A DNA stretch of 64,000 nucleotides, from the NCBI GenBank assembly GCA_016699105.1, contig CP064960.1, positions 136,727-200,726 of the forward strand. Direction: 5' to 3'. The position numbers and the translations under genes are program-made. A model generated the notes under the pieces. That model saw nothing but the letters and a program-made list of their open reading frames with translations, was not told the DNA's origin and made no database searches. This document shows positions 1 through 29,427 of this stretch, one piece after another (the first letter of the stretch is position 1; the number at the start of each line of letters is the position of its first letter). This DNA comes from a bacterium. GTDB taxonomy: Bacteria; Patescibacteriota; Saccharimonadia; UBA4664.

Positions 1-1655
1 ACTGGCAGCGGTGTGGGTGAGGTTGAGGCCGGATGGTAGGGCATATTGGTAAACGCGGTGTTGAGTGTTTGCCAGATTGGTTTAGTAGTATAGGGCAAGG
101 CATCTTCGGCATAGTACCAATAGAAGTAACCTCCTATATAATACGGCAAATTGATATTGAGGCTGTAGTAATAATTTGCAATGTCTTGGGCTTTGGACAG
201 TGTATTGGCAGTAGCCGGGTTGGGCAAACCAATTTCGCCAAACCCAAGTTTGGAATTGGGAAATATGGCGTGAAGCTGTTGCATGAGCGTGGTGACGACG
301 GCGGCAGTGGGCCGGTAATTGTTGCACTGGGTTTCATAGTAGCTATTGGTGACATAGGTGAGCCCTGATTTGACGTCGCTGGGTAAGTATTGATTCGCAA
401 AACTGACGGGGTCGAGCTCGCGGGCTGAACCGGCGCAGCCTGGGTTGTACCACAGTGTTAATTCGCTGCGTTTACCGGCGGCGGCCACTTGATGATAAGC
501 GTCAGTGATTTTGGCAGCCACATCGGTATATGGCCCGGTCCAATCGCCGTTAACCTCATTGCCGATTTCCCAGATGTCGATTTTGGTGCCGAAGGCTGCC
601 AAAAAACTGGCCGTACGGTCGTGATATTGTTGGACGGTTTGAGCGGCCATATACTCAGAATCGCTGAGCTCACCTAAAAGATAGGTATACGGCTGGAGGG
701 CATTGACGGCCGTCGTGTAGTCTGACGGCGTGGTGTTTTCATCAAAGACGATACGGGTAGTCGGCAGGTGACTGAAGTGTTGTGACGAGGCTATGATAGC
801 AGCCGTATTACTGACGTCGTCGGCCGTCACTCCATAGAGTGGATCTGGAACAGCGCGCATACCGGCCGGTGTGCCGGGAGTGGTGGTTGGGGCCGTGCTG
901 GGTGTAGGGGTTGGAGTAGACGCCGACAGAGTTCCGGCCGAAATGTTGGTAAATTGGACGCGGGCATCTTCGTTGTACAAACCAATTTTGCCACTGGTAT
1001 AGGGTCGCTCGGTGTCGGTAAAGCTTGTGATCTGGGTGCCATCGACCGACACAGTGATGGTATTGACGGCGTCTTGGGTTATGACGATGTCATGCCACGA
1101 CGCTATATCAAACACGGTTTGACTACCAGTCTGCAAAAATCGTTGGGCACCAGGATAGGCTGGATCTTCTTTGCCGAGTTCCCAGCCGTTGGGCTTGAGC
1201 GTGAAATAATAAAAGTGGGTATTGTCGGTATAGTTCCAGATGACCCAGGCAGTTTCCCAGGCATTTGGCGCTGTCCCCGTGCGGAGTTGGGTGACGGTGC
1301 GCATTTTGGTGTCTAAGCGCATGGCTCCGGTCAAGGCCGGACCTGTTACCAGCGAAGCATGCGTTTCACTGGCACCTGCGGCTACTTGGGATGCCTCTTC
1401 GAGCCACGACATCGTAGCGTCACTGCCGACTTTAACACAGCCGCCACCGGCATAGACGACGTTCCATTGACCGAGCGCTGTGCCGTCAGCTAGACAAGTA
1501 CCGGTTGCGTAACTAGAGAAGTTGTCCGAAAATACCGTGCTGGCTCGTGAATACAGGGTGATCGTGACGCCTGCTGCTACGACAATCGCCATCACGGCTA
1601 AGGCAAGCCATTTATTGATGCGCGGTACCGCTGTGAGTCGCCGTTTAGTTGCCAA
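1..1655 (-). CDS. Secreted/membrane-anchored glycoside hydrolase (clan GH-A, GH26/mannanase-like) with N-terminal signal anchor and LamG/ConA-like domain; C-terminus runs off window start
   Basis: Hand translation of the minus strand gives a continuous frame. It reads: TTG start ~1655, 'KRRLTAVPRINKWLALAVMAIVVAAGV' TM helix, a LamG-like segment ('WETAWVIWNYTDNTHFYYFTLKPNGWELGKEDP..ITVSVDGTQITSF..GKIGLYNEDARVQF'), a PT linker 'STPTPTPSTAPTTTPGTP', then a catalytic region with 'IDIWEIGNEVNGDW'. The E-x-N-G-x-W motif resembles the GH26 acid/base signature. The ORF tracker does not list it because it is truncated by the window edge. Confidence 0.5.
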   Translation of the reverse strand, partial: MATKRRLTAVPRINKWLALAVMAIVVAAGVTITLYSRASTVFSDNFSSYATGTCLADGTALGQWNVVYAGGGCVKVGSDATMSWLEEASQVAAGASETHASLVTGPALTGAMRLDTKMRTVTQLRTGTAPNAWETAWVIWNYTDNTHFYYFTLKPNGWELGKEDPAYPGAQRFLQTGSQTVFDIASWHDIVITQDAVNTITVSVDGTQITSFTDTERPYTSGKIGLYNEDARVQFTNISAGTLSASTPTPTPSTAPTTTPGTPAGMRAVPDPLYGVTADDVSNTAAIIASSQHFSHLPTTRIVFDENTTPSDYTTAVNALQPYTYLLGELSDSEYMAAQTVQQYHDRTASFLAAFGTKIDIWEIGNEVNGDWTGPYTDVAAKITDAYHQVAAAGKRSELTLWYNPGCAGSARELDPVSFANQYLPSDVKSGLTYVTNSYYETQCNNYRPTAAVVTTLMQQLHAIFPNSKLGFGEIGLPNPATANTLSKAQDIANYYYSLNINLPYYIGGYFYWYYAEDALPYTTKPIWQTLNTAFTNMPYHPASTSPTPLP

Positions 1656-2991
1656 AGATTATTTGTCCTCGACGCGGGCCGTTGCCGGAGGGGTATTGTC
1701 GGGCGCTGGTGGCAGTATTGCCGTTGCCGCCTGACCCGTAATCGTCAGCCCAGACGTTGCCGCTCGCCACATTGCCATCGCTGCCCCAGGTGGCTTGGGC
1801 GGCCACGGGGCCGAAATTACCACCATTGGTCCACCATTGCGTCGTAATTTTGTTGCCCAAGAATCGAACGTTTTTGGCTCCTGGCCGTTCGCCCGCAGCA
1901 TAGAGGACATAACCGGAACCACCAAGGTAGTTGTTTTCGACCAACACATCATTGTAGGAACCGCCATTTGAACCAAATAACGCAATGCAGTCGGTTTGAG
2001 TCGTTATGTGGCCACCATCATCGGGGCTCGGTACAGTTATGTGATTGCGTAAGATTTTGAAGCGGGTTGGGGTGACATTACTCATGCCTTCAGACGAGAT
2101 ACCGTTCAGGTGATAGGTGCAACTGCCACCGGTACCACAGGGTCCATTTTCGCCGTAGTAAAAAATAATCTTATCGATATAATTTTCGGTTATTTCTACA
2201 CCGGGAGCATTTGGTTGAATGCCGGTGGCTTCGAGGCTGATATATGTGCGTAACACCCGATGGTCCTGGCCGCCCAGGAATTTCATGGCTACGTCACTGG
2301 CTTGATTGTCGGCAGCGCCGGTCGAGCCGATGTCACTGTAATGGACATAGACTGAGTAGTTTGTGGCTGTCGAATCATTGAATAAGCCGGCGCCACTGAG
2401 TTTTTGCCGCGAACGGACGCCTCGGAACAGGAATTTTCCGGGAGTGCCTGATACGTAGAAGTCAGCTGCGCTCAAGTCGCGAAATTGGACGACTTTGGTG
2501 CCTGCCGGGACAAGATAGCCGTCGATGGTAGTGTCGGCGGCCAGTGTGCCGCCATGGTTGGACGGCGAATTATTGTAAACGTAATTGCCGGTCGGTACGA
2601 ATTCATCGGGGGCATCAAACCGGAAATAACCACGAGACGGCGCCGCCACCGATTGGAGTTGTTCCTGACCTTTGGATACACCCTGCAGGGTCCACGGGCC
2701 AACATGGGTGAGGGTGAGTTGATCGCCATGGCTGATTGCGCCAGTCCCGGGCGAAGACGTTGGCGCAGGTGTTGGTGTGTTGGCAGTGCTTGTCGTAAAT
2801 GTAACGACACCACTACCGCTGGCTCCAGTGACAGATTGGGCGGTGGCGCCATTTGATAGACTGCCGGTTTCGGGTTCAAAAGCGGCTGTTGGACCGGCGG
2901 CACGAGTGTACACAATGGCGGCGATACCTAAAACGAGCGCTCCCGCCATTAATGGGGCGGCTTGGCGGATGGATGGCTTGGTCATTATCAT
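1645..2991 (-). CDS. Array paralog G1: conserved N-terminal anchor module + PT linker + large C-terminal domain (beta-helix-like repeats near C-terminus)
   Basis: 448-aa ORF. N-terminus is TM 'LMAGALVLGIAAIVYTRAAGPTAAFEPETGSLSNGATAQSVTGASGSGVVTF', then 'TPTPAPTSSPGTG'. C-terminus has 'ENNYLGGSGYVL..LGNKITTQWW' repeats. Confidence 0.6.
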   Translation of the reverse strand: MIMTKPSIRQAAPLMAGALVLGIAAIVYTRAAGPTAAFEPETGSLSNGATAQSVTGASGSGVVTFTTSTANTPTPAPTSSPGTGAISHGDQLTLTHVGPWTLQGVSKGQEQLQSVAAPSRGYFRFDAPDEFVPTGNYVYNNSPSNHGGTLAADTTIDGYLVPAGTKVVQFRDLSAADFYVSGTPGKFLFRGVRSRQKLSGAGLFNDSTATNYSVYVHYSDIGSTGAADNQASDVAMKFLGGQDHRVLRTYISLEATGIQPNAPGVEITENYIDKIIFYYGENGPCGTGGSCTYHLNGISSEGMSNVTPTRFKILRNHITVPSPDDGGHITTQTDCIALFGSNGGSYNDVLVENNYLGGSGYVLYAAGERPGAKNVRFLGNKITTQWWTNGGNFGPVAAQATWGSDGNVASGNVWADDYGSGGNGNTATSARQYPSGNGPRRGQIIFGN

Positions 2992-4046
2992 AATGCTGTG
3001 CCGTCACTCCATTTGTTGTTTGACCAGACACTATTGGCGGGCGCTGTGCCACTAACGTCGTGGTAATAGTTGGTTTCCGGACCGTAAGCACCACATTTGT
3101 TGTTGCTACCACGCTGGAAGATGTTGTTGGTAACCGTGAGGTGATGGGCTTGCGGACCGTAGGGTTTGGTGTCATGGCCCGCGTACAGACAGTAAGCTAA
3201 CCCGGTATTGGCGGTGAGCAATGATTTGTTGAGCGTGGCATAACTGATGGGACCGAAATCACCAAACCACGATACATCACCTGAGCAACCACCCCCGGTA
3301 CCATTAGTGGGTACGTTACAGGAGACTGTTGAATGTTCGATGAGATAGTCGGAACCACCATTCGAGATGAAACCATTGTTGTGCGTAGCACCTTGGACAT
3401 AGGGGTCATGGAGGTAAGAATCGTAAATTTTACAATTTGTCGAGCAGAGCACGTTATGTTGGCCACCTCTGATATCGCTCCGAATGACCGTGATGTTTTT
3501 ATAAGTGACAGCCCCATATGTCACTGACCCGGCATCCACTTCGCTGTCTTGAATCGTTACCGAACCATGAAAAGCGTCAGTGTCGTCGTTGTAGACGACA
3601 GTATTGACGCGGCTGTTTTTGATGACGACATTGGTGGCATTTTGGCCGATATCGAGCCGGTCGCAGTTGTTGACGATTTTAGCGTCGATGATCGTATTGG
3701 CGGCCGTGATGGTACAAGGACCTGTATAGGCGGTGAGGGTGACTCCCGCGGGCACGCCAGTATTAGCTGGTCCTGGCCAGCAGCCGCCCATGCCGTCGGA
3801 GCCATCAGGAATGTGTAACGTTGAGCTAGCACATGCCGTGGGCGAGGTGCTCGGTACGGGTGTCGGGGTGGGAGTTGCACCCGTGCCAAATTTGACGACG
3901 CCACTGCCGGAAGCGCCCGAAATGCTAGCAGTACTAGCGCCGGCGGACAAGGTACCAGTTTCCGGTTCAAAAGCTGCCAGCGGTCCGGCCGCTAGCGAAC
4001 GGGTGACGACATAACCCAATACCATTACTGCGCCCATGACAGCCAA
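2988..4046 (-). CDS. Array paralog G2: N-terminal anchor module + right-handed beta-helix (pectate-lyase-fold) polysaccharide-active enzyme
   Basis: Module 'VMVLGYVVTRSLAAGPLAAFEPETGTLSAGASTASISGASGSGVVKFGTGATPTPTPVP'. It is followed by a Cys-containing 'GGCWPGPANTGVPAGVTLTAYTGPCTITAANTIID' and repeated N-x-x-N/V-x-x-N beta-helix rungs. The TTG start at 4046 lies just downstream of an in-frame TGA that cuts off the 'SRYSWIKLRV' tail conserved in the paralogs. Confidence 0.65.
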   Translation of the reverse strand: MAVMGAVMVLGYVVTRSLAAGPLAAFEPETGTLSAGASTASISGASGSGVVKFGTGATPTPTPVPSTSPTACASSTLHIPDGSDGMGGCWPGPANTGVPAGVTLTAYTGPCTITAANTIIDAKIVNNCDRLDIGQNATNVVIKNSRVNTVVYNDDTDAFHGSVTIQDSEVDAGSVTYGAVTYKNITVIRSDIRGGQHNVLCSTNCKIYDSYLHDPYVQGATHNNGFISNGGSDYLIEHSTVSCNVPTNGTGGGCSGDVSWFGDFGPISYATLNKSLLTANTGLAYCLYAGHDTKPYGPQAHHLTVTNNIFQRGSNNKCGAYGPETNYYHDVSGTAPANSVWSNNKWSDGTAL

Positions 4047-4116
4047 TACGCGTAATTTAATCCAAGAATATCGCGAGAGAGGAGATCAAGCTTATAAGTG
4101 GCATGATCGAATAGTT

Positions 4117-5367
4117 TTATGGTGTTTCCATAGTTGCTAGCCAGGAACCATACGGATAATCAGTGTCATTCTTGAAGAGCAGGCCGTCGTCCCACATGTT
4201 GCCTTTGAAGACAAAGCCGGCTTTGGCGTCGTTGTACGAATCTATGACCCCGTAGCCACCACAGGTGTAGCGGCGCTTGTCGGTAACGGCAATGGTAGTG
4301 CGGTCATTGGTACGAGTACCTCGTTGGAAGACGTTGTTGGTCGACTTGATATTGGTAGCATTGAGCGGGTCATTGTTGTAGGGTTTGCCAGGGTTATCAC
4401 CGCCATAGGAACAGTATCCACCGGTGGTTGCCATATAGAAGTTTTTATCGAAGGTATTGTCGTGGATCGGCGAGAAGTCCGGGTAGCCAGTCTGGTTAGC
4501 GGAACAGCCGGCGTCAGGCGGAAAATCTGGAGCATTACACCAGAAGGTGTTGTGGCGCAAAGTGGCATAGGCTTCAACGCGGGCGGATGATTCATGCGTC
4601 ACACCTGTAGGGTCGCTCAATTGATCGTGAAGGTAGGAATCTTGCAACGTACAATGGTCGCACCACACTTGACGTTTGCCGCCATACATATTGGCGCGAG
4701 TGACCGTGTAGTTGGAGCCTTTGAGACCTTCGCCATTGATATTGTTTCCGAAGTTGATTTCACTATCTTCCATGGTTAATGAACCGCTATCCACGCCGAT
4801 GTTGCTGGCAGTAATTTTGGATTTTCTAATGATGACATTCGCTGCTTGAATTGATAGGTCACAATTAATGGTTTTGGAGTCGATGACGGTATTGGCGGCC
4901 GTGATGGTGCAGCTACCAGTGTAGGCGGACAGCGTCGTACCAGTCGGTATGCCGGTGTTGCCGGGACCAGGGAAGCAGCCACCCCAAGGATCGGGGCCAC
5001 CAGGGACGAACACTTGGTGCCGGCCGGGTAACCACTATTGGTGCGGTTGGTGACATCAGCGGCCGTAATGGTGCGTTTGGTTTGCGGACAGCCTCCAGCA
5101 ACGGGAGTTGCAGTAGGCGTAGGGTGGTGGAGTAGTGGCATTGAATCGCACAACGCCCAAACCACTGGCGCCAGTCACGCTCGCAACAGTGGCACCGGCC
5201 GACAATGTACCAGATTCGGGTTCGAAGGCAGCCGTGGGACCGGCGGCAAATGACGGAAGGGTAACCACATAGCCAAGGATAGCGACGGCTCCGATGACGG
5301 CAACTGCCCTGAGTTTAAACCAAGAGATTCGTGATAAGGAAACGAGGCGAGTGGCCGGCACTGGCAT
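4117..5367 (-). CDS. Array paralog G3 (beta-helix enzyme) interrupted by two closely spaced frameshifts
   Basis: The N-module ORF 5056..5367 ('SRISWFKLRAVAVIGAVAILGYVVTLPSFAAGPTAAFEPESGTLSAGATVASVTGASGLGVVRF') ends in the PT linker. The beta-helix body 4117..5013 starts 'GGPDPWGGCFPGPGNTGIPTGTTLSAYTGSCTITAANTVID'. A third frame (4776..5165) bridges the two, so there are two indels around ~5015–5100. Confidence 0.45.
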
Positions 5368-5401
5368 AACCTTTTTGTTAGTTCAAATAATAGCACAGGA
5401 G

Positions 5402-6514
5402 TTATTGCTGCTGATAGATACGCAGGTAATCAACTTCCAATTGACGGGTAAGGTCAAGACTGGGCAGGGTGAGACCCCAACTGCGCTCCCAATTGTTGTC
5501 CACCATCATGTGCAAAATAATCTGCATGGGGCCGTTTTCGATGGTGGAGCTATTGCCGTTGAACTGCCCGCATTTGACGCCGTTGATATACCAGGCAATG
5601 TAGGTGGGTTGCCAGTCCACGCCAAAACGGACAAAGTCAGTGGAATAGTCTTTGACGGCACAGGCGCCATTATTATTGTCACCGTTGTTGAGCGCATAAG
5701 ACTGCCCGCGGTCGTTGTAGTGATAGGTCATAAAGATGGTATCGGGATCGCCACCGAGGATTTCAACGATATCAATCTCGCTCCGATAGCTAAAGCTCGT
5801 ATCTGTGGGTAGCATCCAAAAAGCGGTGAAAAAGCCGGAAGTGGCGGGGTACTTCATGCGCGATTCGACGTAGCCGTAAGTAAAAGGAAACAAATACGGC
5901 GAACCATTGTCGGCGCGGGGACGAGCGGTCGAAACTAAGCCAGCTTTGTAGTTGCAGCTACCTTGATAGCAGCCAGTGCTGGCATACGGGGGCGAAAGTG
6001 GCTCAGCCACCAGTTTGGCGGTGCCGTTTGATAACCTGACTTGGCTGGGCATGTAGCGCTCACGGCCCTGGTTGAAGGTGCCAGTGCAATCGCCATAGTT
6101 CCAATCGAAACAAGGCGAGAGTTTGGTGGTATCGAGCGTAGTGCCACTAAATTCTTCTGAGTAAGACACTTTCCATGACTTACCACTGGCGGCGGGGGCT
6201 GGAGGTGCCGGATAACAATTGGGCGAGGTGCCAATTTCACCACTGGCGCAGGCTGTGGGAGTAGGCGTCGGTACGGGAGTAGTGGCGGCGGCAAATTTGA
6301 CAACACCCGAGCCGCTGGCACCAGTAACCGATTGCGTAGTAGCTCCGCCAGACAGACTGCCAGTTTCGGGTTCAAACATGGCTAGTGGGCCGGCGGCGCG
6401 GGTCATGACAACGGCTGCCGTGCCTATGATAGCTACGGCCACAATCACGAGCCCAGACTGGCGGCGGGAAAGGCGACTGAGTTTCGTGAGATGGGTAGTG
6501 GTAATTTTTGACAT
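5402..6514 (-). CDS. Array paralog G4: N-terminal anchor module + GH16 family beta-glucanase/laminarinase-like domain
   Basis: The module 'AAGPLAMFEPETGSLSGGATTQSVTGASGSGVVKF' is followed by 'TPVPTPTPTACASG'. The GH16 catalytic motif 'SEIDIVEILGG' (E-I-D-I-V-E) is present. Other GH16 hallmarks are 'YGYVESRMKYPATSGFFTAFWMLP' and the C-terminal 'VDYLRIYQ'. Confidence 0.7.
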   Translation of the reverse strand: MSKITTTHLTKLSRLSRRQSGLVIVAVAIIGTAAVVMTRAAGPLAMFEPETGSLSGGATTQSVTGASGSGVVKFAAATTPVPTPTPTACASGEIGTSPNCYPAPPAPAASGKSWKVSYSEEFSGTTLDTTKLSPCFDWNYGDCTGTFNQGRERYMPSQVRLSNGTAKLVAEPLSPPYASTGCYQGSCNYKAGLVSTARPRADNGSPYLFPFTYGYVESRMKYPATSGFFTAFWMLPTDTSFSYRSEIDIVEILGGDPDTIFMTYHYNDRGQSYALNNGDNNNGACAVKDYSTDFVRFGVDWQPTYIAWYINGVKCGQFNGNSSTIENGPMQIILHMMVDNNWERSWGLTLPSLDLTRQLEVDYLRIYQQQ

Positions 6515-6517
6515 AAG

Positions 6518-7702
6518 TTAGTTTGGGGATACCGTGGCGCCATTATCATATTTGTTGTTAGTCCAGACATTGCCAGTGCGGCCGGAAATATAATCGGTGA
6601 CGGCGCCATAATATCCACATTTACCCGTGGTGCCACGTTGGAAAATATTGTTTGTGAATACAATGTAGGTGGCATTGGTGGGATCGTTGCTGTAGGGCTT
6701 GCCTGCGGTGCCACCGCCATAGACGCAGAACCCATTGCCTGGATTGGCCAGAAACAAGTTTTGGTCGATAGTGGCATTTTTAATTGGCGCAAAATCAGGA
6801 TAACCTGTCAGATCGGCTGAACAACCAAGCTCATCGTTCGGGAATGGCCCATTATAATCGCAGCCGAGAGCATTGTGGCGTAGCGTGAGGTATTGTTCGC
6901 TGCGCACACCTGAGGCATGGGCTAAGTTTGTTTGGTCGGGCCAGAGGTTGGTGCCGTGCATATAACTGTCCTGAATAGTGCAGGTATTACCGCAATAGGC
7001 CGACCGGTTGGTGTGCGTGATCTCAGTGCGCAGGATAGTAAAGTTCTCATACCCTACACCGCATTCGACGGTGCCGTTATTGGGATCACCACAGGCATAT
7101 AGACCGGCCGCGCAGGAAGTCGGACCACTACAGGCTGGCCGCTGGACGGCGTTGTCGATCTGCGAATCCTGAATCGTAAATGAGGCCGAACCACTGTTTT
7201 GAATGACCCCACCCTTGAGATAGGAATTTTTAATCATCAGGCCAGAGGCGCCGGTGCCCACGACCAGCGGACTACAATTAACAATTTTGGAATCAATGAT
7301 GGTGTTCGCAGCCGACACGGTGCATGATCCTGTGTAGGTTGACATCGAAGATTCCGGGGCGTTGGGACCAGTATTGCTTGGACCCGGCCAACAGCCGCCA
7401 AACGGGTCTGGTCCATCTGGTACATTGGAAATAGTGGTGGCGCATGAACCAGCAGTAGGCGATGGAGTCGGTGTAGCCGAAGCTGCGAACTTGATAACGC
7501 CACCACCACTAGCACCAGTAACCGATTGCGTATTGGCTCCGCCAGACAGACTGCCGGTTTCGGGTTCGAAGGCAGCTAGTGGGCCAGCGCCTTTGGCCAA
7601 CAAGACCGTAACGATACCGAGTAGAACAACCACAATTACCACGAGCATCATCTGGTGGCGGTTAAATCGAGGTTGGTAGATCATGGTGATATTTTTTGTC
7701 AC
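6518..7702 (-). CDS. Array paralog G5: N-terminal anchor module + right-handed beta-helix enzyme
   Basis: Module 'KGAGPLAAFEPETGSLSGGANTQSVTGASGGGVIKFAASATPTPSPT'. It is followed by 'GGCWPGPSNTGPNAPESSMSTYTGSCTVSAANTIIDSKIVN' and beta-helix rungs. Its C-terminal half is homologous to G3. Confidence 0.65.
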   Translation of the reverse strand: MTKNITMIYQPRFNRHQMMLVVIVVVLLGIVTVLLAKGAGPLAAFEPETGSLSGGANTQSVTGASGGGVIKFAASATPTPSPTAGSCATTISNVPDGPDPFGGCWPGPSNTGPNAPESSMSTYTGSCTVSAANTIIDSKIVNCSPLVVGTGASGLMIKNSYLKGGVIQNSGSASFTIQDSQIDNAVQRPACSGPTSCAAGLYACGDPNNGTVECGVGYENFTILRTEITHTNRSAYCGNTCTIQDSYMHGTNLWPDQTNLAHASGVRSEQYLTLRHNALGCDYNGPFPNDELGCSADLTGYPDFAPIKNATIDQNLFLANPGNGFCVYGGGTAGKPYSNDPTNATYIVFTNNIFQRGTTGKCGYYGAVTDYISGRTGNVWTNNKYDNGATVSPN

Positions 7703-7713
7703 GTTGGCTAATC

Positions 7714-9026
7714 CTAGTATTGGTTGATACCCATATCTTTGCCATCTGAGGCGGCGTTGCGACCCGGTGAGGCAGTGTTGAGTAAATAACCCAGCCAGGT
7801 ATTGACGGGACCAACATATGAAGGTGTACCAGTGATACTGCCGGTACCCTGGGCGCTACCAGAAGTAAACAGATTGTTAGTGCTGGTAAAGCCGACATTA
7901 TTGCCACCGCCGCCATTACCAATACCTGCCAGGATATTATTGCGAATAATGGTTGTACAAGCGCCACAAGCCGACTTGGAACCAAGTCCTATAGTGTCAT
8001 TTACGAATGTATTGTGCTGGATGATGGAGCCAGAGTCGTGATACCAGGTCATAGCTTCGCCGTGATTTCCAGGAGTGAAAACGTTGTACTCAACGAGATT
8101 GTTGCTCGAGCCATCAGCCATCATGATACCGGCTGCCACATTGCCATTGGGTCCGCCCCGCCGCCGATGAAAAGATTTCCACGAATCGTGACACCTGTTC
8201 CGCCGTAGATTTGGATGGGGTCAGAATGGTAAGGATCTTGATCGAGGATGTTAGTAAAGGTGTTGCCTTCGATAATGACACCGTCGGCATCAGCCCTGAT
8301 GCCGTCAGAATTGCCACCATCGAATAGTGAATTGCGAATCGTGATGCTATTGGTACCGCCCGTGCCCGATACATGTACTCGTCCCGCAACGCAGCTGCTA
8401 CAGGTATTGATATTGACGTGAGTATTGTGATCAAGAAGTAGGTTGTGCCCGGCGGCCGATTCAATATATACAAGATTGGTAAAAGCGGAATTTTTAATGG
8501 TGATGTTGCTGGAAGTTCCAGTGATATCGCCGCCACCAATAGTGAGTCCGTCCAAAGTAAAGCCACTGTCCCCATTGCCAAAACTAATACTCATGACTGG
8601 CGAGGCGCCAGATTGTTTGGTGATGGTAATGGCTTTACTGACCCCGGTAAACTCGCCGTAATTGCCACTGGCCAAGCAGACTACTTGTCCGGCGGTAGCC
8701 GCCGAGACGACGCCGGCAAAGGTGCTGGTTGTGGCATTGGTGGTGCAAGTGATGGGTGCGGCGGTGGGGGTGGGAGTTGGCGAGGAAGTAGTGCCTGCAC
8801 CAAACCGGACGATGCCAGTGCCGCTGGCGCCGCTGATCGACTGGACAACAGCGCCAGCCGAAAGCGTGCCAGTCTCGGGTTCGAAGGCGGCCGTGGGACC
8901 GGCAGCAAAACTGCGAGTGACAACATAGCCTAGCACCATGACAGCACCTACTACTGCCATGGCTCGGAATTTAACCCAGGAATTAGAGCCGAGATTTACG
9001 AGCCGGGTATTGTGCTTTATAAGCAT
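7714..9026 (-). CDS. Array paralog G6: N-terminal anchor module + beta-helix enzyme; one apparent -1 frameshift at ~8150 in a G/C run
   Basis: ORF 8121..9026 carries the module 'NSWVKFRAMAVVGAVMVLGYVVTRSFAAGPTAAFEPETGTLSAGAVVQSISGASGTGIVRF'. ORF 7714..8139 continues the beta-helix ('NLVEYNVFTPGNHGEAMTWYHDSGSIIQHNTF'). The two join at 'ggcggcggggcgg'. Confidence 0.55.
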
Positions 9027-9044
9027 AAGTGGTTCCTAAGTGTA

Positions 9045-10099
9045 TTAATCATGCACTTGAGGTGCTGGTATGGCAAGTCCGGTGTCCTCCCAGACATTAC
9101 CCGAGTAAGCGGAAAGTGTTGATTTGGTGGATAAAAGCACCGTGCAGCCGCCAAAACCTTGGTGTCGGCCGAATTTGTTGCCGGTAATACTGACTCCGGT
9201 GAGGTTCGATAACACTTTGTGCGCCACATTGATGGTGCAACCACCACCGTCGAGCCAGTTATTCGTAATCTGAATATTACTACATGCCTGACCAGCGTCT
9301 TGGGTAATCTGGTAAGCGGCATTACTACCTGACGAATTGGCGAGGTCGATGGTGGTGCCAGTGATGAGAATATTGGCATTACATTCGTAACTTTGGACAC
9401 CGTCATTGTGCGTCTCTCCCCGCCCTGGTTGGGATCGGAAGCAAAGTAAGCTAGGTCATGAATGTATGAATCGCGAATCGTGACGTTGTCGTAGGCCTTG
9501 ACGCCGTCAACGGCGCCGTGAATATTGGCGCGGAGAATCGTGCTATTGGAAGCCCAAATGCCATCCATACAGGCGGTGGCATTGCTGGGGGCAATTTCGG
9601 AATCTTGGAAGGTAAAGTTGGTGGCCGATTCCATGACCCAGAGCGGGGCGGAATTTTGGGCGTTACTGGATGTGCAGGGTTTGGTTCCTCCCCGAATAAT
9701 GGAATTTTTGATAGTAATGTTGGCACCATTGACGCGCACATATCCCCTAATGTCGAGACCAGAAATAACTTGGCCGTTGGTAGAGTAGGTCTGGTCGCCA
9801 TTGACGACGGTGAGCGATGTGCCAGCTGGAATGCCGGTGTTACTGGCTCCGGGTTTGCCACCGGGAGTGGGTGTAGCCGTGGGCGCCGGCGTTGGGCTCG
9901 GTGTGGAGATGGCAAATTTGACGACCCCACTGCCGGAAGCGCCGGATGCTGTCTGGACGGTGGCACTACCGGACAAGATACCAGTTTCGGGTTCGAAGGC
10001 GGCCAGGGGTCCGGCGGCCAGTGACCGCATCACAACGTAGCCTAAGATTGTGACTGCTCCGATGACGACGGCTAAGCGGGGTAAGTTTAACGTGCGCAT
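9045..10099 (-). CDS. Array paralog G7: N-terminal anchor module + beta-helix enzyme; apparent frameshift at ~9425 in 'ctccccgccc'
   Basis: N-terminus is 'LAVVIGAVTILGYVVMRSLAAGPLAAFEPETGILSGSATVQTASGASGSGVVKF'. After ~9425 the 9017..10099 frame becomes implausible. The beta-helix continues in frame 9045..9227 ('HKVLSNLTGVSITGNKF...'). Confidence 0.55.
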
Positions 10100-10124
10100 G
10101 CGTGATTGCCTTTATGCATAAAAA

Positions 10125-11216
10125 TTACGGGTAATTAACTGCTTGGCCGGACGACGTTTTATTATTCGCCCAACGGGTAAAGGTTGCGCCTGTCATAATG
10201 TCATAGTAACCCCATTGGCCGGCCACCAGATTGGCAAACGTATTGTCATAAAACGCAGCGTTAATCACATTTGGATCCATTCTGACGACATAACCGCCAC
10301 CATTGAAATAGTTGCCATATATTTGGGGTGTTGTAAATGAGTCACCTTGGAAAAAGAGGGCAGCGTTTTGATGAGTCCCGTCGAAGCCGTTCAGGTCGAT
10401 TCGATTGAAACGAAGTATTAAGTTGGGTGCATAAAAAACCTGCAGACCATCATTGTGTGACGCGTCGGCTTCGGTGGTACCGGTCAGAGCTAGATCGTGA
10501 ATATAGTTGTACTCAATGACATTGTTTGGGCCAGCCACATGAATACCATCGGCAAATCCAGTGATCTCGTTACGCTGAAGTTGAAAAATGGTACCACCCA
10601 TAGCTTTGATACCGCCGGCGCCGTTATTGAGTCCGGGAACTGATCCAGGTTTCCAGCGGATCGTGGAGTCACTGATTTTGACAATGGCTCCGTCAGCCCG
10701 ACTATTGACACCGCACCAGGTGCCATAGCCACCTTCGATGACGGAATTGGTGACGGTCAGAGTACCGGATCCGTAGAAATCGAGGCAGCCTTTGATGTAC
10801 ACATGGTCGAGTGTAATGTTATCGGCATTGACCTGCAGATAGCCGTACTGAGTGTCGTAATAGGTACCAGCAGGTGCAGCGGCGGCCGATGCTATGGTGG
10901 TGAGGGCAGATGTCGTGCCCCGGTAGCCGACAGTTCCGGCAGCAGGGTAGGTGTTGGTGGAAGGTGTGGTCGACGGTACTGGCGTCGGATTGACCGCGGT
11001 GCCCATACTAAATTGGACAACGCTGCCACCGGACGCGCCGGTGACGGTTTGGACGACGGCATCGTTAGCCAAGGTACCTGTTTCTGGCTCGAACGCCGCT
11101 AAGGGACCGGCCGCCCGGATGAGGGCAACGGCAATGACACCGGTGGCGACCGTGAGGCCGACAACGCCGATGATGGCACGGGACCGGGGCAGGGCTTGAG
11201 GCGTAAGCGTATTCAT
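10125..11216 (-). CDS. Array paralog G8: N-terminal anchor module + right-handed beta-helix (NosD/pectin-lyase-fold) enzyme
   Basis: Module 'VIAVALIRAAGPLAAFEPETGTLANDAVVQTVTGASGGSVVQF', then a PT linker. Beta-helix rungs are 'VIEYNYIHD', 'ILRFNRIDLNG' and 'QIYGNYFNGGGYVV'. Confidence 0.65.
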   Translation of the reverse strand: MNTLTPQALPRSRAIIGVVGLTVATGVIAVALIRAAGPLAAFEPETGTLANDAVVQTVTGASGGSVVQFSMGTAVNPTPVPSTTPSTNTYPAAGTVGYRGTTSALTTIASAAAAPAGTYYDTQYGYLQVNADNITLDHVYIKGCLDFYGSGTLTVTNSVIEGGYGTWCGVNSRADGAIVKISDSTIRWKPGSVPGLNNGAGGIKAMGGTIFQLQRNEITGFADGIHVAGPNNVIEYNYIHDLALTGTTEADASHNDGLQVFYAPNLILRFNRIDLNGFDGTHQNAALFFQGDSFTTPQIYGNYFNGGGYVVRMDPNVINAAFYDNTFANLVAGQWGYYDIMTGATFTRWANNKTSSGQAVNYP

Positions 11217-11236
11217 TGCTTATGCTTGATTATACA

Positions 11237-12358
11237 TCAGGGCTTAGGCAAGACAGCACCCTGGTTGCTGGCCTTGGTTGGATCATTGACATAATTTTGA
11301 TCCCACTGACTCCAACCGACACCGCCTTGAACGTAGGCTGCACCATAACCAGTGTTGCTGAGCCGGTTATTGGTGGCCACGAGATTACTGTAGGGCGAGT
11401 TGAGCAGATTGAGACCCAGCTGATACCCGGATCCCTCCAAGAGGTTGCCCGATATAGTGACGTTATCGATCCGTCCGGCGTAGGTTTGCAAAAATAGCGC
11501 GCCAGTATCATTGCCGGAGCTACAATCAAAGCGGTTATTGCGGACTAAGGCCGTACGACCTGGTGTCGAGCTGGCATCGAAATCGCGAATCGTGAAGCCA
11601 TCGGAGTGGTTGCCGGCGCCACCCGGGTCGCCATAGGCTTTGAGTTGGGTGACATAATTACCCTCGACTACACTCGAGTACGTACTGCCAGTATTCATGA
11701 GCCCGATACCACTGCCGAAGCCGTGAATGTAATTGTTTTTGAGGTCGGCAATACCGATGAAAGCGGTCGTGAAGGCAGCCTCTTGAGCACCCAGAAGTGA
11801 ACCGTCAAATTCGGAGTTGGAGATAGTGACTTTACCTTGGGCAGACTGGCAACCATTGGTGCCGCAGATGTTGGTATTAGTAGTAGTGACCAGCGGGTAG
11901 CCGATGCCAGCTGAAGTCGGCTTGAAGCATGACCGGTCGATGGTGATGTTACCGGCCGAAAGAACGAGGCCGACAGTTATACGTTTATTGGTAATAGTAG
12001 TACCGGCCGGGACATTTTCGGCACCGGTATAAACAGGTAATGAAGCACAATTAAGATCAACACTAGCCAAGCCGGTGTTGGCAGCTGTGATTTGCCAGCC
12101 ATAGAGACTACCAACTGGTGTCGGTGTGGGAGTAGCGCTAGATGACGCCGGAAATTGCACGACGGTAGCGCCATTGGTAACGGCCGTGACCGCTCCCGCC
12201 GACAGCGCGCCCGCTTCGGGCTCAAAAGCTGCCAGCGGACCGGCAGCAAAGCTGCGCGTAATGACGTATCCTAAGACAATTACGGATGCAATAACCACTA
12301 CAGCCCGAAGCCTGATCCAAGACAGTTTTGAGAGCAATATGAGCCGCGTTGTTGCCAT
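11237..12358 (-). CDS. Array paralog G9 (first in transcription order): N-terminal anchor module + beta-helix enzyme
   Basis: Module 'LSWIRLRAVVVIASVIVLGYVITRSFAAGPLAAFEPEAGALSAGAVTAV'. Rungs are 'LKNNYIHGFGSGIGL', 'VVEGNYV', 'LVRNNRFD' and 'ISGNLLEGSGY'. Confidence 0.65.
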   Translation of the reverse strand: MATTRLILLSKLSWIRLRAVVVIASVIVLGYVITRSFAAGPLAAFEPEAGALSAGAVTAVTNGATVVQFPASSSATPTPTPVGSLYGWQITAANTGLASVDLNCASLPVYTGAENVPAGTTITNKRITVGLVLSAGNITIDRSCFKPTSAGIGYPLVTTTNTNICGTNGCQSAQGKVTISNSEFDGSLLGAQEAAFTTAFIGIADLKNNYIHGFGSGIGLMNTGSTYSSVVEGNYVTQLKAYGDPGGAGNHSDGFTIRDFDASSTPGRTALVRNNRFDCSSGNDTGALFLQTYAGRIDNVTISGNLLEGSGYQLGLNLLNSPYSNLVATNNRLSNTGYGAAYVQGGVGWSQWDQNYVNDPTKASNQGAVLPKP

Positions 12359-12398: not shown

Positions 12399-12866
12399 CT
12401 ACTGAGTCGGTTTGTCGCCCTTAGTCAGGCTTTTCTTGGCGCTTGATGCCAGTTTGAGCTTTTTAGGTTGCGGTAATTCGCGGCGTTCAAAGCTGATTTT
12501 GAGTACTCCATCCGCAAAGTCGGCTTGGCCAGATTCGGCATCGACGTCTTTGGGTAAGACGAAGCTGCGGTAATAGCTAGCTTGGGAGGACTCACGGCGC
12601 AGATAGTTGCGGCTGTGTGATTCTTGACTGTGCTCAGCTTTGATTTCGAGGCGGTCGCCATTGATTTGGACGTCAACCTCGGATTCTTTAAACTGCGGCA
12701 GGGCAGTTTCAACGACCAGCCGGCCATCTTCTTCGTAGATGTCAGTCGCCGGGACAGTCAGCCACTGTCCAGCGTTTGTGAGGCCACGGGTAGCTAGACG
12801 ACTCATGCGCTCTTGCATGTCATCGAGCTCTCGGAATGGGTCCCAATTCAATAGAGCGTTTGTCAT
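12399..12866 (-). CDS. Hsp20/alpha-crystallin family small heat-shock protein
   Basis: 'NWDPFREL...' N-terminus and the alpha-crystallin core 'FVLPKDVDAESGQADFADGVLKISFE'. A CIRCE operator sits ~60 bp upstream. Confidence 0.85.
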   Translation of the reverse strand: MTNALLNWDPFRELDDMQERMSRLATRGLTNAGQWLTVPATDIYEEDGRLVVETALPQFKESEVDVQINGDRLEIKAEHSQESHSRNYLRRESSQASYYRSFVLPKDVDAESGQADFADGVLKISFERRELPQPKKLKLASSAKKSLTKGDKPTQ

Positions 12867-12926
12867 AACAATTCCTCCTTGTAGAGATTAGGTTTTAATT
12901 ATTCCGGACTATTTAATTATAGTCCG

Positions 12927-12953
12927 TTGGCACTCAAAGGTCAAGAGTGCCAA
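12927..12953. promoter_or_regulatory. CIRCE-like HrcA operator (perfect inverted repeat TTGGCACTC-N9-GAGTGCCAA)
   Basis: The sequence ttggcactcaaaggtcaagagtgccaa is a 9-N9-9 perfect palindrome. It differs from the canonical TTAGCACTC only at position 3. It lies upstream of hsp20 and overlaps the grpE 3' end. Confidence 0.7.
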
Positions 12954-13415
12954 CTTTAACCATAGCTGGCCTTAATATGGCATCACCGAGCTTGTAACCC
13001 GCGGCCAGTTCGGCAATGACAGTATCGCCTTCACCTTCCCTGGCGACAGCTTCATGCTGATGTGGATCAAAGGGTTGACCGACGCAGTCCAGCCGTTCGA
13101 CACCGAGGTTCTTGAGCACCGCATCAAATTGCGTGCGGATGGCATCGATGGAGGCAGCCCAGGCTGCGTCAATGTTAGCCGGACGGTGCGCAGCTTCGGC
13201 GTCGAAGGTATCGCGAACCGTTAAAAATTGCCGCACGACCGCCACTTTGGCGTAGTTGAGCGACTGAGATTTTCAGTTTCGGCGCGGCGTTTGTAATTAA
13301 TAAATTCAGCCTGAAGCCGCTGTAAATCAATCGTTAATTCAGCAACTTGATCGGTGACATCAGTACCAGATGCATCTTCAGATATTAATTCGGGCTCAGG
13401 ATTCTTTTTAGTCAT
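12934..13415 (-). CDS. grpE: Nucleotide exchange factor GrpE (split by one frameshift at ~13250)
   Basis: ORF 13221..13415 carries the GrpE N-terminal coiled coil 'AELTIDLQRLQAEFINYKRRAE'. ORF 12934..13245 carries the GrpE C-terminal beta-domain '..GQPFDPHQHEAV..VIAELAAGYKLGDAILRPAMVKV'. Confidence 0.75.
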
Positions 13416-13438
13416 TAGGTAGTCCCCTTTCGTTTGAT

Positions 13439-14131
13439 TTAATTGAGCGCTTCGGCTAGCAGGCGACCGGTGTATTCGACCAAGCCGATGACGGGCGAAT
13501 ATTGCTGACGGGTTGGACCAAGAACACCGATATAGCTCCGGGAACTAAACGGTGACTCGAACCGGCTAATAATGAGTGTGGCACCCGACGTCCGGCCAAT
13601 GGGATTCTCCCGACCAATATAAACGGAGATCGGGTCACCCGGAGCAGCTTCGGCCAACCATTCTTCGAGACTATCGAGCAGCCGGGCGACTTCGTAGGCT
13701 TCCCGGCCGCCATAAAACTCCGGATGCTGAAATAACCCGGCCATACCAGACAAATATAGGTTGGGGCCGATGGTACCGAGGCCGAGATTGCCGGTGACAT
13801 GGGCGAGCGACTCTACAGCGTTCTTGATAGCTCGCTCGACTTCGCCGGCAGACTTAACACGTCGAGCCAAAGCTTGCTCGTGCCGGTGATCGTGCATGGG
13901 AGCGTCCATCGAATTGACATAGGCGCGATAGCCTTTGTCGGTAGGTACCCGGCCAGCAGAAATATGAGGCTGCATGATGAGATCAAGACTTTCGAGCGCG
14001 GCCATTTCCGATCTGACGGTAGCACTCGAAGTTTCAAATTGTTCACATAAAGCATTTGAACCCACGGGCTCAGCCGTGCGAGCATAGGTTTCGACAATTG
14101 CGTGGAGGATTTTGAGTTGGCGCGGGGTCAT
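13439..14131 (-). CDS. hrcA: Heat-inducible transcription repressor HrcA (short form)
   Basis: N-terminal winged helix 'LTPRQLKILHAIVETYARTAEPVGSNAL'. It sits next to grpE, with CIRCE elements nearby. Confidence 0.85.
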   Translation of the reverse strand: MTPRQLKILHAIVETYARTAEPVGSNALCEQFETSSATVRSEMAALESLDLIMQPHISAGRVPTDKGYRAYVNSMDAPMHDHRHEQALARRVKSAGEVERAIKNAVESLAHVTGNLGLGTIGPNLYLSGMAGLFQHPEFYGGREAYEVARLLDSLEEWLAEAAPGDPISVYIGRENPIGRTSGATLIISRFESPFSSRSYIGVLGPTRQQYSPVIGLVEYTGRLLAEALN

Positions 14132-14175
14132 GGGCCTGTCGCTTGGATTGATAAACTTTAGACCTATGGTACTTA

Positions 14176-14202
14176 ATTAGCAGTCAAGCGTCAAGAGTGC
14201 CA
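14176..14202. promoter_or_regulatory. Imperfect CIRCE-like operator (TTAGCAGTC-N9-GAGTGCCAA) ~45 bp upstream of hrcA
   Basis: The right half-site is identical to the hsp20 CIRCE. The left half has one mismatch. Confidence 0.55.
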
Positions 14203-14834
14203 ATCTGATAGAGATTGTCTATACGGCCGAGGAAGCTCGGAAAGCGGTTCCGGCGGTCAAGTAATATCGTCCGTCCAAAACCAGCCGCCTGGGCTCCTGC
14301 CATATCGTCGAGCGGGTTGTCGCCAATCATAATTGCCTGTTCAGCCGGAACTTGAGCTAGCTCGAGCGCAGCAGAAAAAATTGCTCGATCAGGTTTGATA
14401 GCTCCAACCGCATATGAGTTGGTAATGTAATCAAATCTCTCAGATAGAGCGAAAGTTTGATCTAACTGTTCGAATGCCGCCTGCGAAGTATTGGAGATGA
14501 GCCCTAGGCGGTATTTGTGGCGAAACTGCTCAAGCGTTTCGAGTGCATCATCATAGGGGCGCTGGCGGGCGAACCCACTTTCGATGATCTCGACAATGGT
14601 GCCTGTTAATCGCGATGACCGGGGCAGACCAAGAGCTTTGAGGAGCTGCCGGGCCCATACGTGTTGATCGAGACCGGGCTTGGTCATAAAAGCGTGCTCG
14701 AAGTGTTTGACGAATGGTCGGTTGAACGGAACTTTGAGGACATCACAAATGCGTTTGAGGTCGTCAGCCATATCAGAAGTAAAAAGGGTATACCAACAAT
14801 CGAAGAATATTACGGTGGGTTTGGCGCCAGACAT
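14184..14834 (-). CDS. HAD-superfamily hydrolase
   Basis: HAD motif I-like 'VIFFDCWYTLF' and a C-terminal 'IMIGDNPLDDMAGAQAAG' (motif III/IV). Confidence 0.6.
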   Translation of the reverse strand: MSGAKPTVIFFDCWYTLFTSDMADDLKRICDVLKVPFNRPFVKHFEHAFMTKPGLDQHVWARQLLKALGLPRSSRLTGTIVEIIESGFARQRPYDDALETLEQFRHKYRLGLISNTSQAAFEQLDQTFALSERFDYITNSYAVGAIKPDRAIFSAALELAQVPAEQAIMIGDNPLDDMAGAQAAGFGRTILLDRRNRFPSFLGRIDNLYQIGTLDA

Positions 14835-26897: not shown

Positions 26898-26972
26898 TGG
26901 TGGCTACGGGTAGATTCGAACTACCGACCAAGAGCTTATGAGTCTCCTGCTCTACCACTGAGCTACGCAGCC
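26898..26972 (-). tRNA. tRNA-Met (CAT anticodon; elongator or Ile2/lysidine type)
   Basis: Minus-strand read: ggctgcgtagctcagtggtagagcaggagactCATaagctcttggtcggtagttcgaatctacccgtagccacca. Cloverleaf with a 7-bp acceptor, GTTCGAATC T-loop and encoded CCA. Confidence 0.8.
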
Positions 26973-27126
26973 AGGGGATAACTGCCAAATTATAACCTGA
27001 TATAAGGGTAAAGTCTACGGTGTTTCCGGTACGGTTTTGCCCACCCTACCGACAAGGGTCAAGGCGTGATCGCCGCACCGGTTGCGCCTATGCTGTAACC
27101 GCCTAGAGTTCATTTAGGCAATCTCG

Positions 27127-27170
27127 TGCCCGGGGAGACACCCGCCCGCTCTTCCCGGGCACTTTTCATT
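27127..27170 (+). terminator. Rho-independent terminator-like hairpin on plus strand
   Basis: gtgcccgggg...ccccgggcac forms a 10-bp GC stem and is followed by ttttcatttt. Confidence 0.45.
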
Positions 27171-27435
27171 TTGATATTGAAGGCATCGTCGACTATATTA
27201 TCCCTCACTACATTCACGCGATTAGTCGCATTATGCGACCTATGTTGTAATAGCCCAAATTGTCGAGCAAATGTGGCTCTATATAGGCCTTCTAAATGCT
27301 TATACTGGACATATTAAGCAATGGGTCGCAGATTGAGATATATATACTTTATGGTTAGTTACGGAATCGGGAATAATCTCAGATAACTTATATGCGTAAG
27401 CGCAGAGCGCAAAACTACCGCTGCGATACAAGAAA

Positions 27436-27463
27436 ACGACCCAAAACTGGGTCGTTTTTGATA
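27436..27463. terminator. Bidirectional intrinsic terminator hairpin
   Basis: acgaccca-aaac-tgggtcgt stem, flanked by a T-run on the plus strand (ttttt). On the minus strand it reads UUUUCUU, downstream of the initiator tRNA. Confidence 0.5.
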
Positions 27464-27469
27464 ATTTCT

Positions 27470-27546
<77 letters not shown>

Positions 27547-27633
27547 TCGTACCTGGGATAATGTATCATGTTTTTACCTAGTGCGTCAAGATCGAGGGCG
27601 TGCTAGAATAACAGCATCAAGAAGAGGAAACGT

Positions 27634-28794: not shown

Positions 28795-29122
28795 AGTTTG
28801 ACTCATTGACAGCTGGATCTGGCACTGGCGTTGGCAACGGCGTCGGTGCAGATTTAGCGATGATGACTACGTTTTCGCCTGGTTTTTGTAAGCCAAGTTT
28901 GGCCCGGGCTTCGCGCTCACGAAACGAATCGGTCGTAAAATAGGTAATGTTGTTGGCTAGTTCCTTTTTCTGGCTCTCCAACATGCTGATTTCGGCTCGG
29001 AGGCTGGCAGATTGTTCATCGAGGTCGTGGTTTTTCTTGACGGTTTGTACAAGCACGACTAATAGATAGAGCACAACTAAACCGGCAGCAATGTTGAAGA
29101 GATTGGGCCAGGTGAACTTCAT
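28751..29122 (-). CDS. FtsB/DivIC-like septum-formation initiator (TM + coiled coil)
   Basis: N-terminal TM 'IAAGLVVLYLLVVLV', followed by 'LDEQSASLRAEISMLESQKKELANNI'. Confidence 0.5.
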   Translation of the reverse strand: MKFTWPNLFNIAAGLVVLYLLVVLVQTVKKNHDLDEQSASLRAEISMLESQKKELANNITYFTTDSFREREARAKLGLQKPGENVVIIAKSAPTPLPTPVPDPAVNESNFSLWLSFLRGQPQP

Positions 29123-29352
29123 ACTTCTTATAGTAGCACTTCAACAAGAATTGCCTGGCCGAATAACTCTTGCTTGCTCACGATCGCCATCAATGACCTA
29201 TCCAGATAGCATTTGCTTGCTCACGAACGCCGACCGCAGAGTAAACACGTTTATGTATTATTACCTACATGAGCTGCGCAACCTTATCTGGTTCGGTCTT
29301 AAAAATAAGCTATATCTAATCTGATATCCGTGTATAATAAGTGCGTTACCGC

Positions 29353-29427
29353 GGGCCGTAGCTCAGCGGTCAGAGCAGGCGGCTCATAACCGCTTGGTCG
29401 CAGGTTCAAATCCTGCCGGGCCCACCA
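29353..29427 (+). tRNA. tRNA-Met/Ile2 (CAT)
   Basis: ..gggccgtagctcagcggtcagagcaggcggctCATaaccgcttggtcgcaggttcaaatcctgccgggcccacca. The acceptor pairs perfectly only if one C is added to the 5' 'gggcc' run. This fits the homopolymer under-calling seen elsewhere in the window. Confidence 0.7.

Follow-up and report, generated by a model that had tools for sequence, protein, structure and literature searches.

Peptide conservation and probable rare recombination at one short tract in a tandem array of exported-enzyme genes from a Saccharimonadales genome

When the same short stretch of DNA recurs in every gene of a tandem array, does it recur because the genes exchange DNA with one another, or because each gene needs the peptide that the stretch encodes? 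The question is raised here by 64,000 nucleotides of contig CP064960.1 (positions 136,727 to 200,726; "the window" in what follows), from a member of Candidatus Saccharimonadales (TM7). Nine tandem paralogs (G1 to G9), all on the minus strand in the list of open reading frames (ORFs), occupy window positions 1645-12358, and each carries a short module near its 5' end. A first-pass annotation had called these modules near-identical at the level of DNA, and had taken them to imply either very recent duplication or ongoing concerted evolution. Both parts of the question turn out to matter. In this genome, the tracts are shown to be alike as DNA because purifying selection acts on the peptide, with help from codon bias. 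In relatives, the same tract appears to be the place where paralogs occasionally recombine.

The repetition itself is not in doubt. A six-frame motif scan finds exactly nine copies of the module in register, all in the array, and no further copy in the other 51 kb of the 64-kb window. The tracts are spaced by 1091-1315 nt (mean ~1170), and the nine positions first listed for them, at a spacing of about 1.1 kb, are correct to within a few bases. The 25-mer consensus offered at that time matches six copies with three or fewer mismatches, versus none expected from shuffled sequences. An independent repeat finder delivers two families, one of 7 x 93 nt and one of 4 x 97 nt, whose members are 63-75% identical to the reference copy. 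Read as protein, each gene encodes a short basic tail, a hydrophobic helix of ~20 residues, the peptide AAGPxAAFEPETG, a less conserved segment xLSxGAxxQSVTGASGxGVVxF, a linker rich in Pro and Thr, and then a variable head, the cargo. The small hairpin segment that follows the core is GASGxGVVxF. The alignment of the modules has 14 invariant amino acid columns, among them G, A, G, P, A, F, E, P, E, G and L.

At the level of DNA, "near-identical" is too strong. The 39-nt tract that encodes the peptide has a mean pairwise identity of 76% (69-87%), and a 105-nt core has a mean of 64% (54-81%). Exact repeats within the array reach 21 nt, and none has 22 nt or more. Nor are the third positions of codons largely preserved, as had been thought; core identity at codon positions 1, 2 and 3 is 0.75, 0.77 and 0.40, and the third position in the tract reaches 0.45. 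Where two residues are identical, they use the same codon in 0.407 of cases in the core (0.362 expected from codon usage) and in 0.453 of cases in the tract (0.394 expected).

These numbers speak to the idea that the DNA or its transcript is itself the conserved element, perhaps as an mRNA structure, the target of a small RNA or a site where a protein binds. Such an element might well hold a fixed position near the 5' end of each gene, as the tract does. However, the variation in the tract is strictly periodic in three nucleotides with third positions free, and an Rfam search of the module finds no match. A conserved nucleic acid element is hardly credible here.

The synonymous sites carry the argument further. 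When modules are compared with cargo, the NG86 estimate of synonymous divergence (dS) is at least 0.91 in all 36 pairs of modules, and 15 of these pairs are saturated. Four-fold degenerate sites differ at 0.647 in the modules versus 0.602 in the cargo; the two have diverged equally. The fraction of identical amino acids encoded by the same codon is 0.37 in the modules (430/1153) versus 0.41 in the cargo that can be aligned (609/1497), and even these values of 0.37-0.41 compare with 0.36 expected. Because the synonymous sites are saturated, what is conserved within this genome is the peptide, under purifying selection.

Those who would have the nine modules kept alike as DNA, by very recent duplication or by ongoing gene conversion, can of course point to exceptions. 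The sole clear one within the window involves two adjacent genes, G4 and G5, which have a 57-nt stretch in common at 95% identity, where 15 of 18 codons are the same; here, a run test of the Sawyer type finds 17 matching polymorphic sites in a row (global p 0.009). The pair G2 and G7 shares a 29-nt tract with one mismatch (global p 0.07). Further, genuine homogenization is found in relatives, as described below. Against this stand not only the saturated synonymous sites, the equal four-fold divergence and the lack of long exact repeats, but also comparisons between species. For the modules of G1 and of G8, the ortholog is the best match across species, indicating vertical descent. As an account of all nine modules, maintenance at the level of DNA is thus very unlikely, and recent duplication or ongoing homogenization in this genome is refuted.

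A different picture emerges from relatives of this genome. The loci used for comparison, denoted by L-numbers, are metagenome contigs or assemblies. The first-pass annotation had suggested a search of related strains for structural variants, and these are found: deletions, fusions and the replacement of a cassette, with junctions in register inside the module.

Consider first the fusion of G5 with G4. Three assemblies from three samples (L003, L091 and L092) lack the DNA between window positions ~6395 and ~7482, and this joins the leader of G5 to the cargo of G4, a glycoside hydrolase of family GH16. The unit that is absent includes the region of G5 after its core, its linker and its cargo, the intergenic gap, and the leader of G4; its boundaries are approximate because its flanks are homologous. 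All three switch from bases diagnostic of G5 to bases diagnostic of G4 within the same 21-nt interval where the two genes are identical. The unfused form is independently backed by L093. In an outgroup sister species (L007), the counterparts of G5 and G4 are separate genes, and this means that the fusion is a derived deletion. As a separate observation, two contigs from two independent Logan samples (L001 and L002) end at the same base in the G5 module, corresponding to window position 7560. Such a shared end would fit a branch in the assembly graph, whether the repeat created it or the coexistence of fused and unfused haplotypes did.

Other variants have the same form. Relative to L007, L094 and L095 lack 3.75 kb holding three genes, and the junction lies in two modules that are 90% identical over 213 nt. 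One cassette has also been replaced between L007 and L094, L095 and L096. Here, identity is 99% as far as one gene's Phe codon; in the L094 type and L007, the cargo, the intergenic gap and the next leader are then unrelated; and ~97% identity resumes at the AAGP codons of the next gene. The replacement runs exactly between the AAGPLAAFEPE codons of two successive genes, and the deleted units have the same shape. Variants of the L094 type are found in three samples from JGI. A second fusion, of two further array genes at a 57-nt exact tract that their modules have in common in L003, is seen in L006. All five mapped junctions keep the register and lie at -48 to +97 nt relative to the Phe codon. 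One further variant does not lie at the module: in L095 (2212-4114), the array breaks off within a cargo, and genes for DUF7666, pentapeptide-repeat and TnpB/Cas12f-like proteins follow.

Leaders and cargoes also have incongruent relationships, as judged from pairwise identities and membership in clusters. A single cluster of GH16 cargoes at 90% identity, drawn from NCBI, ENA, JGI and Logan sequences, carries at least four types of leader. Across species, cargo orthologs are 88-95% identical, while their leaders are 40-48% identical to each other but 78-89% identical to the leader of another paralog.

Relatives also hold the homogenization that the window largely lacks. In L007, three modules are 83-91% identical as DNA, with the same codon used at fractions of 0.65-0.82, even though their cargoes have diverged to the same degree as those in the window; the window orthologs of these three modules have values of 0.29-0.38. 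Among the homogenized modules, runs of 48 and 41 nt are shared exactly, in a mosaic pattern. Two neighboring modules of L003 have 57 nt exactly in common between unrelated flanks, and this reads as the signature of gene conversion. Near position 10025 of L007, a leader with its Phe codon at 10052, otherwise homogenized with two paralogs, has an in-frame TGA (NIS*FKLR). This could mark a pseudogene, a downstream start or an error.

It might be argued, of course, that purifying selection is the whole story, that the tract plays no role in recombination, and that the variants are artefacts of assembly or independent losses of genes. This argument draws on the synonymous saturation in the window and on the metagenomic origin of every comparison locus; indeed, L006 may be a chimera of a de Bruijn graph at its 57-nt exact repeat. 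However, the junction between G5 and G4 recurs in three assemblies from different samples, and the identity at the junction is just 21 nt. To judge from the names of the contigs, one of the fused assemblies is in the style of SPAdes (NODE_) and one is k141. Variants of the L094 type recur in their three samples, and the re-pairing of leaders with cargoes within the 90% cluster comes from several sources. Further, all five junctions fall in a zone that makes up ~12% of each gene, for which our own estimate of the chance is roughly 0.12^5. Selection with no recombination is therefore unlikely.

The tight clustering of breakpoints in one short sequence might also suggest a programmed process, in which a site-specific recombinase, conversion from silent cassettes or phase variation uses the tract as a recognition site. 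However, no recombinase, integrase or reverse transcriptase gene flanks the array, whose neighbors are HAD, hrcA, grpE and hsp20 genes to one side and dnaK to the other. Notable inverted repeats are absent, and since every copy forms a full ORF that brings a start and a leader of its own, there is no single expression site. The spread of the junctions from -48 to +97 likewise points to no fixed site. Programmed variation is highly improbable.

The best explanation, and one that we consider likely as a whole, combines conservation driven by the peptide within the genome with rare recombination between paralogs at the same tract. Here, the tracts are the codons for the invariant AAGPxAAFEPETG, which is placed directly after the N-terminal basic tail and a helix that presumably spans the membrane or serves as a signal. 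The nine genes would encode glycan-active enzymes that are secreted or tethered to the surface. Rare unequal or ectopic homologous recombination between paralogs would resolve at the tract, as the related assemblies indicate, and would delete, replace or re-pair units made of a post-core region, a linker, a cargo, an intergenic gap and the leader of the next gene. Gene conversion over short tracts would occasionally homogenize modules. The recombination itself may be of the RecA type acting on short homology, and the peptide may be kept as a linear motif for processing or retention beside an A-x-A site resembling that cleaved by signal peptidase.

Several points weigh against this explanation. 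All of the relatives are metagenome assemblies, their variants are known from assembled contigs, and chimeric contigs induced by repeats could mimic fusions in register; L006, a single k=31 contig joined across its 57-nt exact repeat, is a possible artefact of this kind. The three fused alleles have one junction in common, and may represent a single event. Homology between modules in the window extends to 21 nt where exact and to 76% over 39 nt, and so short and diverged a match would meet, at most, the minimum that RecA usually requires for efficient recombination in model bacteria. The function proposed for the peptide, in turn, is putative. Nevertheless, the related assemblies support the view that cassette recombination in this gene family is probably real, rare and episodic, and that it is currently invisible in the window genome. 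The notion that the modules are homology arms for swapping or expanding enzyme heads is accordingly supported, as a rare, episodic process seen in relatives, although the evidence first cited for it, the third positions and a supposed recombinational join in G2, was wrong.

This carries a general caution. Periodic similarity of DNA in an array of paralogs may be due entirely to selection on protein in one genome, yet mark a hotspot of recombination in the population.

The features of the array are collected in Table 1. The module-bearing genes are separated by gaps or overlaps of about -10 to +70 nt, and the same tandem arrangement on one strand also holds in L003, L007, L094 and L097.

Table 1. 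The array genes, the peptide-coding tracts and the intervals involved in the G5::G4 fusion, in window coordinates (aa, amino acids).
Feature	Coordinates	Strand	Description
G1	1645..2991	-	448 aa: leader, core, Pro/Thr linker, beta-helix-like cargo; L003 and L004 orthologs also 448 aa
G2	2988..4104	-	371 aa in relatives, ATG at 4104; frame in window broken by extra T at 4080
G2 as listed in window	2988-4046	-	Only a 352-aa ORF, starting at TTG
G3	4117..5367	-	415 aa in L003; in window, compensating 1-nt indels at ~5128 and ~5017, 3-nt insertion at 5259
G4	5402..6514	-	370 aa, GH16 cargo; equals QQR52685.1
G5	6518..7702	-	394 aa; cargo paralogous to G2 and G3 cargoes, leader of another type
G6	7714..9026	-	Intact 437 aa in relatives (P0009); one G short at ~8160 in window
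G7	9045..10099	-	Intact 351 aa in L001; one G short at ~9422 in window
G8	10125..11216	-	363 aa, right-handed beta-helix cargo
G9	11237..12358	-	373 aa, first gene of array; 4-codon deletion in module
Tenth array gene, start only	1..1655	-	603 aa in L003; runs off window; signal anchor, no AAGPxAAFEPETG core
39-nt tract G1	2863..2901	-	Encodes AAGPTAAFEPETG
39-nt tract G2	3954..3992	-	Encodes AAGPLAAFEPETG
39-nt tract G3	5209..5247	-	Encodes AAGPTAAFEPESG
39-nt tract G4	6359..6397	-	Encodes AAGPLAMFEPETG
39-nt tract G5	7553..7591	-	Encodes GAGPLAAFEPETG
39-nt tract G6	8868..8906	-	Encodes AAGPTAAFEPETG
39-nt tract G7	9980..10018	-	Encodes AAGPLAAFEPETG
39-nt tract G8	11076..11114	-	Encodes AAGPLAAFEPETG
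39-nt tract G9	12209..12247	-	Encodes AAGPLAAFEPEAG
Unit absent from fused haplotype	6396..7481 (approximate)	-	From BLAST versus L003, L091, L092
Crossover interval, G5 copy	7512..7532	-	21-nt exact identity with G4 (TACGCAATCGGTTACTGGTGC)
Crossover interval, G4 copy	6318..6338	-	21-nt exact identity with G5

Several of these genes have broken frames in the window. Codons for the tail of G2 had been read as cut off by a TGA, as if by a recombinational join. This stop belongs to an out-of-frame reading caused by the extra T at position 4080; two related assemblies, otherwise identical over 200 nt, read an intact ATG...MPLISLISLSRYSWIKLRV. The window has, in all, six private 1-nt indels relative to all related assemblies (at 13274, 9422, 8160, 5128, 5017 and 4080), besides the 3-nt insertion at 5259. 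These disrupt G2, G3 (twice), G6, G7 and grpE, and several lie in runs of G or A. The orthologs in relatives are intact (G6, 437 amino acids; G7, 351; G3, 415; G2, 371). The 1-nt indels are most likely errors in a long-read consensus, neither pseudogenes nor the scars of recombination. Pseudogenization of G2, G3, G6 and G7 was considered and rejected, as the indels are specific to the window, several lie in G or A runs, and one lies in grpE. Thus, apparent features of pseudogenes, including a supposed recombinational join, can be indel errors of long-read sequencing.

As for the heads, two have clear assignments. The cargo of G4 matches Pfam Glyco_hydro_16 (PF00722) with 72.6 bits versus a cut-off of 22, and the cargo of G8 matches Pfam Beta_helix (PF13229) with 52.3 bits versus a cut-off of 25.9; orthologs of G6 also carry the Beta_helix annotation. 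The remaining heads are beta-helix-like proteins without Pfam matches. The cargoes had been described as unrelated to one another. This holds for the GH16 head of G4, but not for the cargoes of G2, G3 and G5, which are paralogs at 43-50% amino acid identity, and most of the others are weakly related beta-helix proteins.

A scan of metagenomes with the G4 protein finds 80 loci, 79 of which are GH16 genes without the module, and the N-termini that were read show ordinary signal peptides. Cargo of the G4 type therefore exists without the module. Relatives of the GH16 head of G4 at 54-79% amino acid identity (L012-L090) occur in many contigs from soil and rhizosphere, and those examined lack the module. 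This suggests a domain in wide circulation, which may have been gained by horizontal transfer and provided with the leader afterwards. Among more distant GH16 relatives, some have a looser version, xE(A/P/V)ExG...ASGGxAVxF, behind a transmembrane helix, and others have plain signal peptides.

How widely is the module itself distributed? A profile that included the Pro/Thr linker was swamped by low-complexity words and gave seven matches, and a trimmed core was used in its place. An exhaustive search of a library of 1.8 billion proteins with this trimmed profile recovers 93 protein clusters with the module (E up to 1e-3), where it lies at residues ~3-95 ahead of several kinds of cargo, barring a few matches to repeat proteins judged spurious. 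Two of the top profile matches, P0008 and P0030, were rejected as carriers of the module on the ground that they are spurious repeat proteins. A scan of a genome collection with a very strict module pattern recovers one other species, as a Saccharimonadales metagenome-assembled genome. At least two more module-bearing genes lie on other contigs of the sister genome (L008, position 526; L009, position 10049), and the module is therefore not confined to the array.

Searches of Pfam, NCBIfam and PDB sequences with the module alone return nothing meaningful, even at E=10. The module's FE(P/A)E-G...ASG-G-VV-F resembles the first two strands of carbohydrate-binding modules of the CBM6/CBM35 type, whose N-terminal strands have the pattern xEAE...ASGG..V. 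It differs from them in that it has only ~30 residues and is followed at once by the linker. The N-terminal sequences have no cysteine after the helix that would mark a lipobox and no motif of the G/FTLIE type, and the YSIRK, KxYKxGKxW and type IV pilin families do not match. What the N-termini do have are K/R tails, a helix of ~20 residues, and S/T-x-A directly ahead of AGP. In an AlphaFold2 model of G4, residues 17-38 form the transmembrane helix, and AAGPLAM (43-49) has a predicted local distance difference test score (pLDDT) below 50; the short hairpin is modeled with low to moderate confidence, and the GH16 domain with confidence (pLDDT above 90 over most of it). From these features, we infer that the module may be a linear motif beside a putative S/T-x-A signal peptidase site, followed by a small hairpin and a stalk.

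A bolder and rather doubtful proposal is that AAGPxAAFEPETG is an N-terminal sorting or processing signal specific to Saccharimonadales, by which a dedicated factor displays enzyme heads on the surface of the cell. Such a signal, with its basic tail, transmembrane helix and invariant linear motif, would be the mirror image of the C-terminal signals of the sortase and exosortase type.

The neighborhood of the array is also conserved. In every relative, the array sits between HAD-hrcA-grpE-hsp20 and dnaK. It is thus inserted within a heat-shock locus, as seen in window positions 12399-14834 and in L001, L003 and L097, with dnaK and later dnaJ on the other side. HrcA has just 230 amino acids in all strains, and in L097 a gene for heliorhodopsin separates hsp20 from the array. 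The tenth array gene, in its L003 form, has a faint match to 3-keto-disaccharide hydrolases and a weak dockerin-like C-terminus. Elsewhere in the window, a stretch of 2.5 kb (26898-29427) holds three tRNA-Met (CAT) genes, of which two are on the minus strand and the third is on the plus strand.

Recombining arrays of paralogs are known in other bacteria, of course. The closest published analog is the tandem cluster of lipoprotein-like (lpl) paralogs in nuSa-alpha of Staphylococcus aureus, where the conserved region is 132 nt with a mean identity of 88% and a minimum of 79% (Tsuru and Kobayashi, 2008, PMC2568036). Both systems are tandem paralogs on one strand that encode exported proteins, with a short region inside each ORF, conserved strongly here in its amino acids but less so in its DNA, and variable flanks on its 5' and 3' sides. 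In both, breakpoints between strains fall at the conserved region, and the 5' and 3' parts of an ORF are incongruent. Further, the unit that moves in lpl is the 3' part of one ORF, the intergenic stretch along with the 5' part of the next ORF, exactly as in the L094/L007 cassette. The differences are equally clear. Here, the homology is shorter and more diverged, the 105-nt core and the 39-nt tract having mean identities far below the 88% of lpl; the conserved piece comes directly after the signal or transmembrane helix, rather than in mid-gene; the heads are unrelated enzyme folds (GH16 and beta-helix), rather than one lipoprotein family; and the host is an ultrasmall bacterium of the candidate phyla radiation, whose array proteins have no lipobox cysteine. 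The N-terminal module is itself undescribed, and is built into a known kind of recombining cluster of tandem paralogs.

The vsp, vlp and vsa loci of Mycoplasma are clusters of surface-protein genes with a conserved 5' leader and a variable remainder, where recombination at the 5' end creates chimeras. They are phase-variable or antigenic, often switch by site-specific inversion or at promoters, and encode repetitive bodies that are not enzymes. The array shares with them the clustering, the conserved 5' leader and the variable remainder, but all of its genes are complete enzyme genes, and it shows no switch element. In polymorphic toxins such as Rhs and CdiA-CT, orphan modules use a conserved junction as a homology arm to exchange C-terminal heads. 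Unlike these, the array lacks a long delivery domain, immunity genes and truncated orphans, and its heads are glycan-active enzymes; the ORF list has no small genes interleaved among the array genes, and hence no pairing of a toxin C-terminal domain with an immunity gene. It differs as well from systems of silent cassettes (pilE/pilS, vlsE, msp2), which pair one expression site with promoterless or truncated donors, in that a start codon, a leader and a stop are present in each copy. Where frames in the array are broken, the cause is the 1-nt indels specific to the window and absent in relatives, not the truncation of donor cassettes.

What might such an arrangement do for its host? Saccharimonadales are ultrasmall, have reduced genomes and depend on host bacteria. 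Exported enzymes are likely to be central to the way that they feed on, or attach to, their hosts and the polymers of biofilms. If the peptide were indeed a sorting signal, its obligatory codons would double as a universal in-frame junction for every displayed enzyme, and a reduced genome could delete, exchange or acquire heads without breaking export; the GH16 head, whose relatives lack the module, would be an example. With a short obligatory peptide-coding tract as the in-frame junction, whole cassettes may drop out, acquire other leaders, or be replaced from one strain to another. In this way, the locus shows how a reduced genome can vary its repertoire of enzymes.

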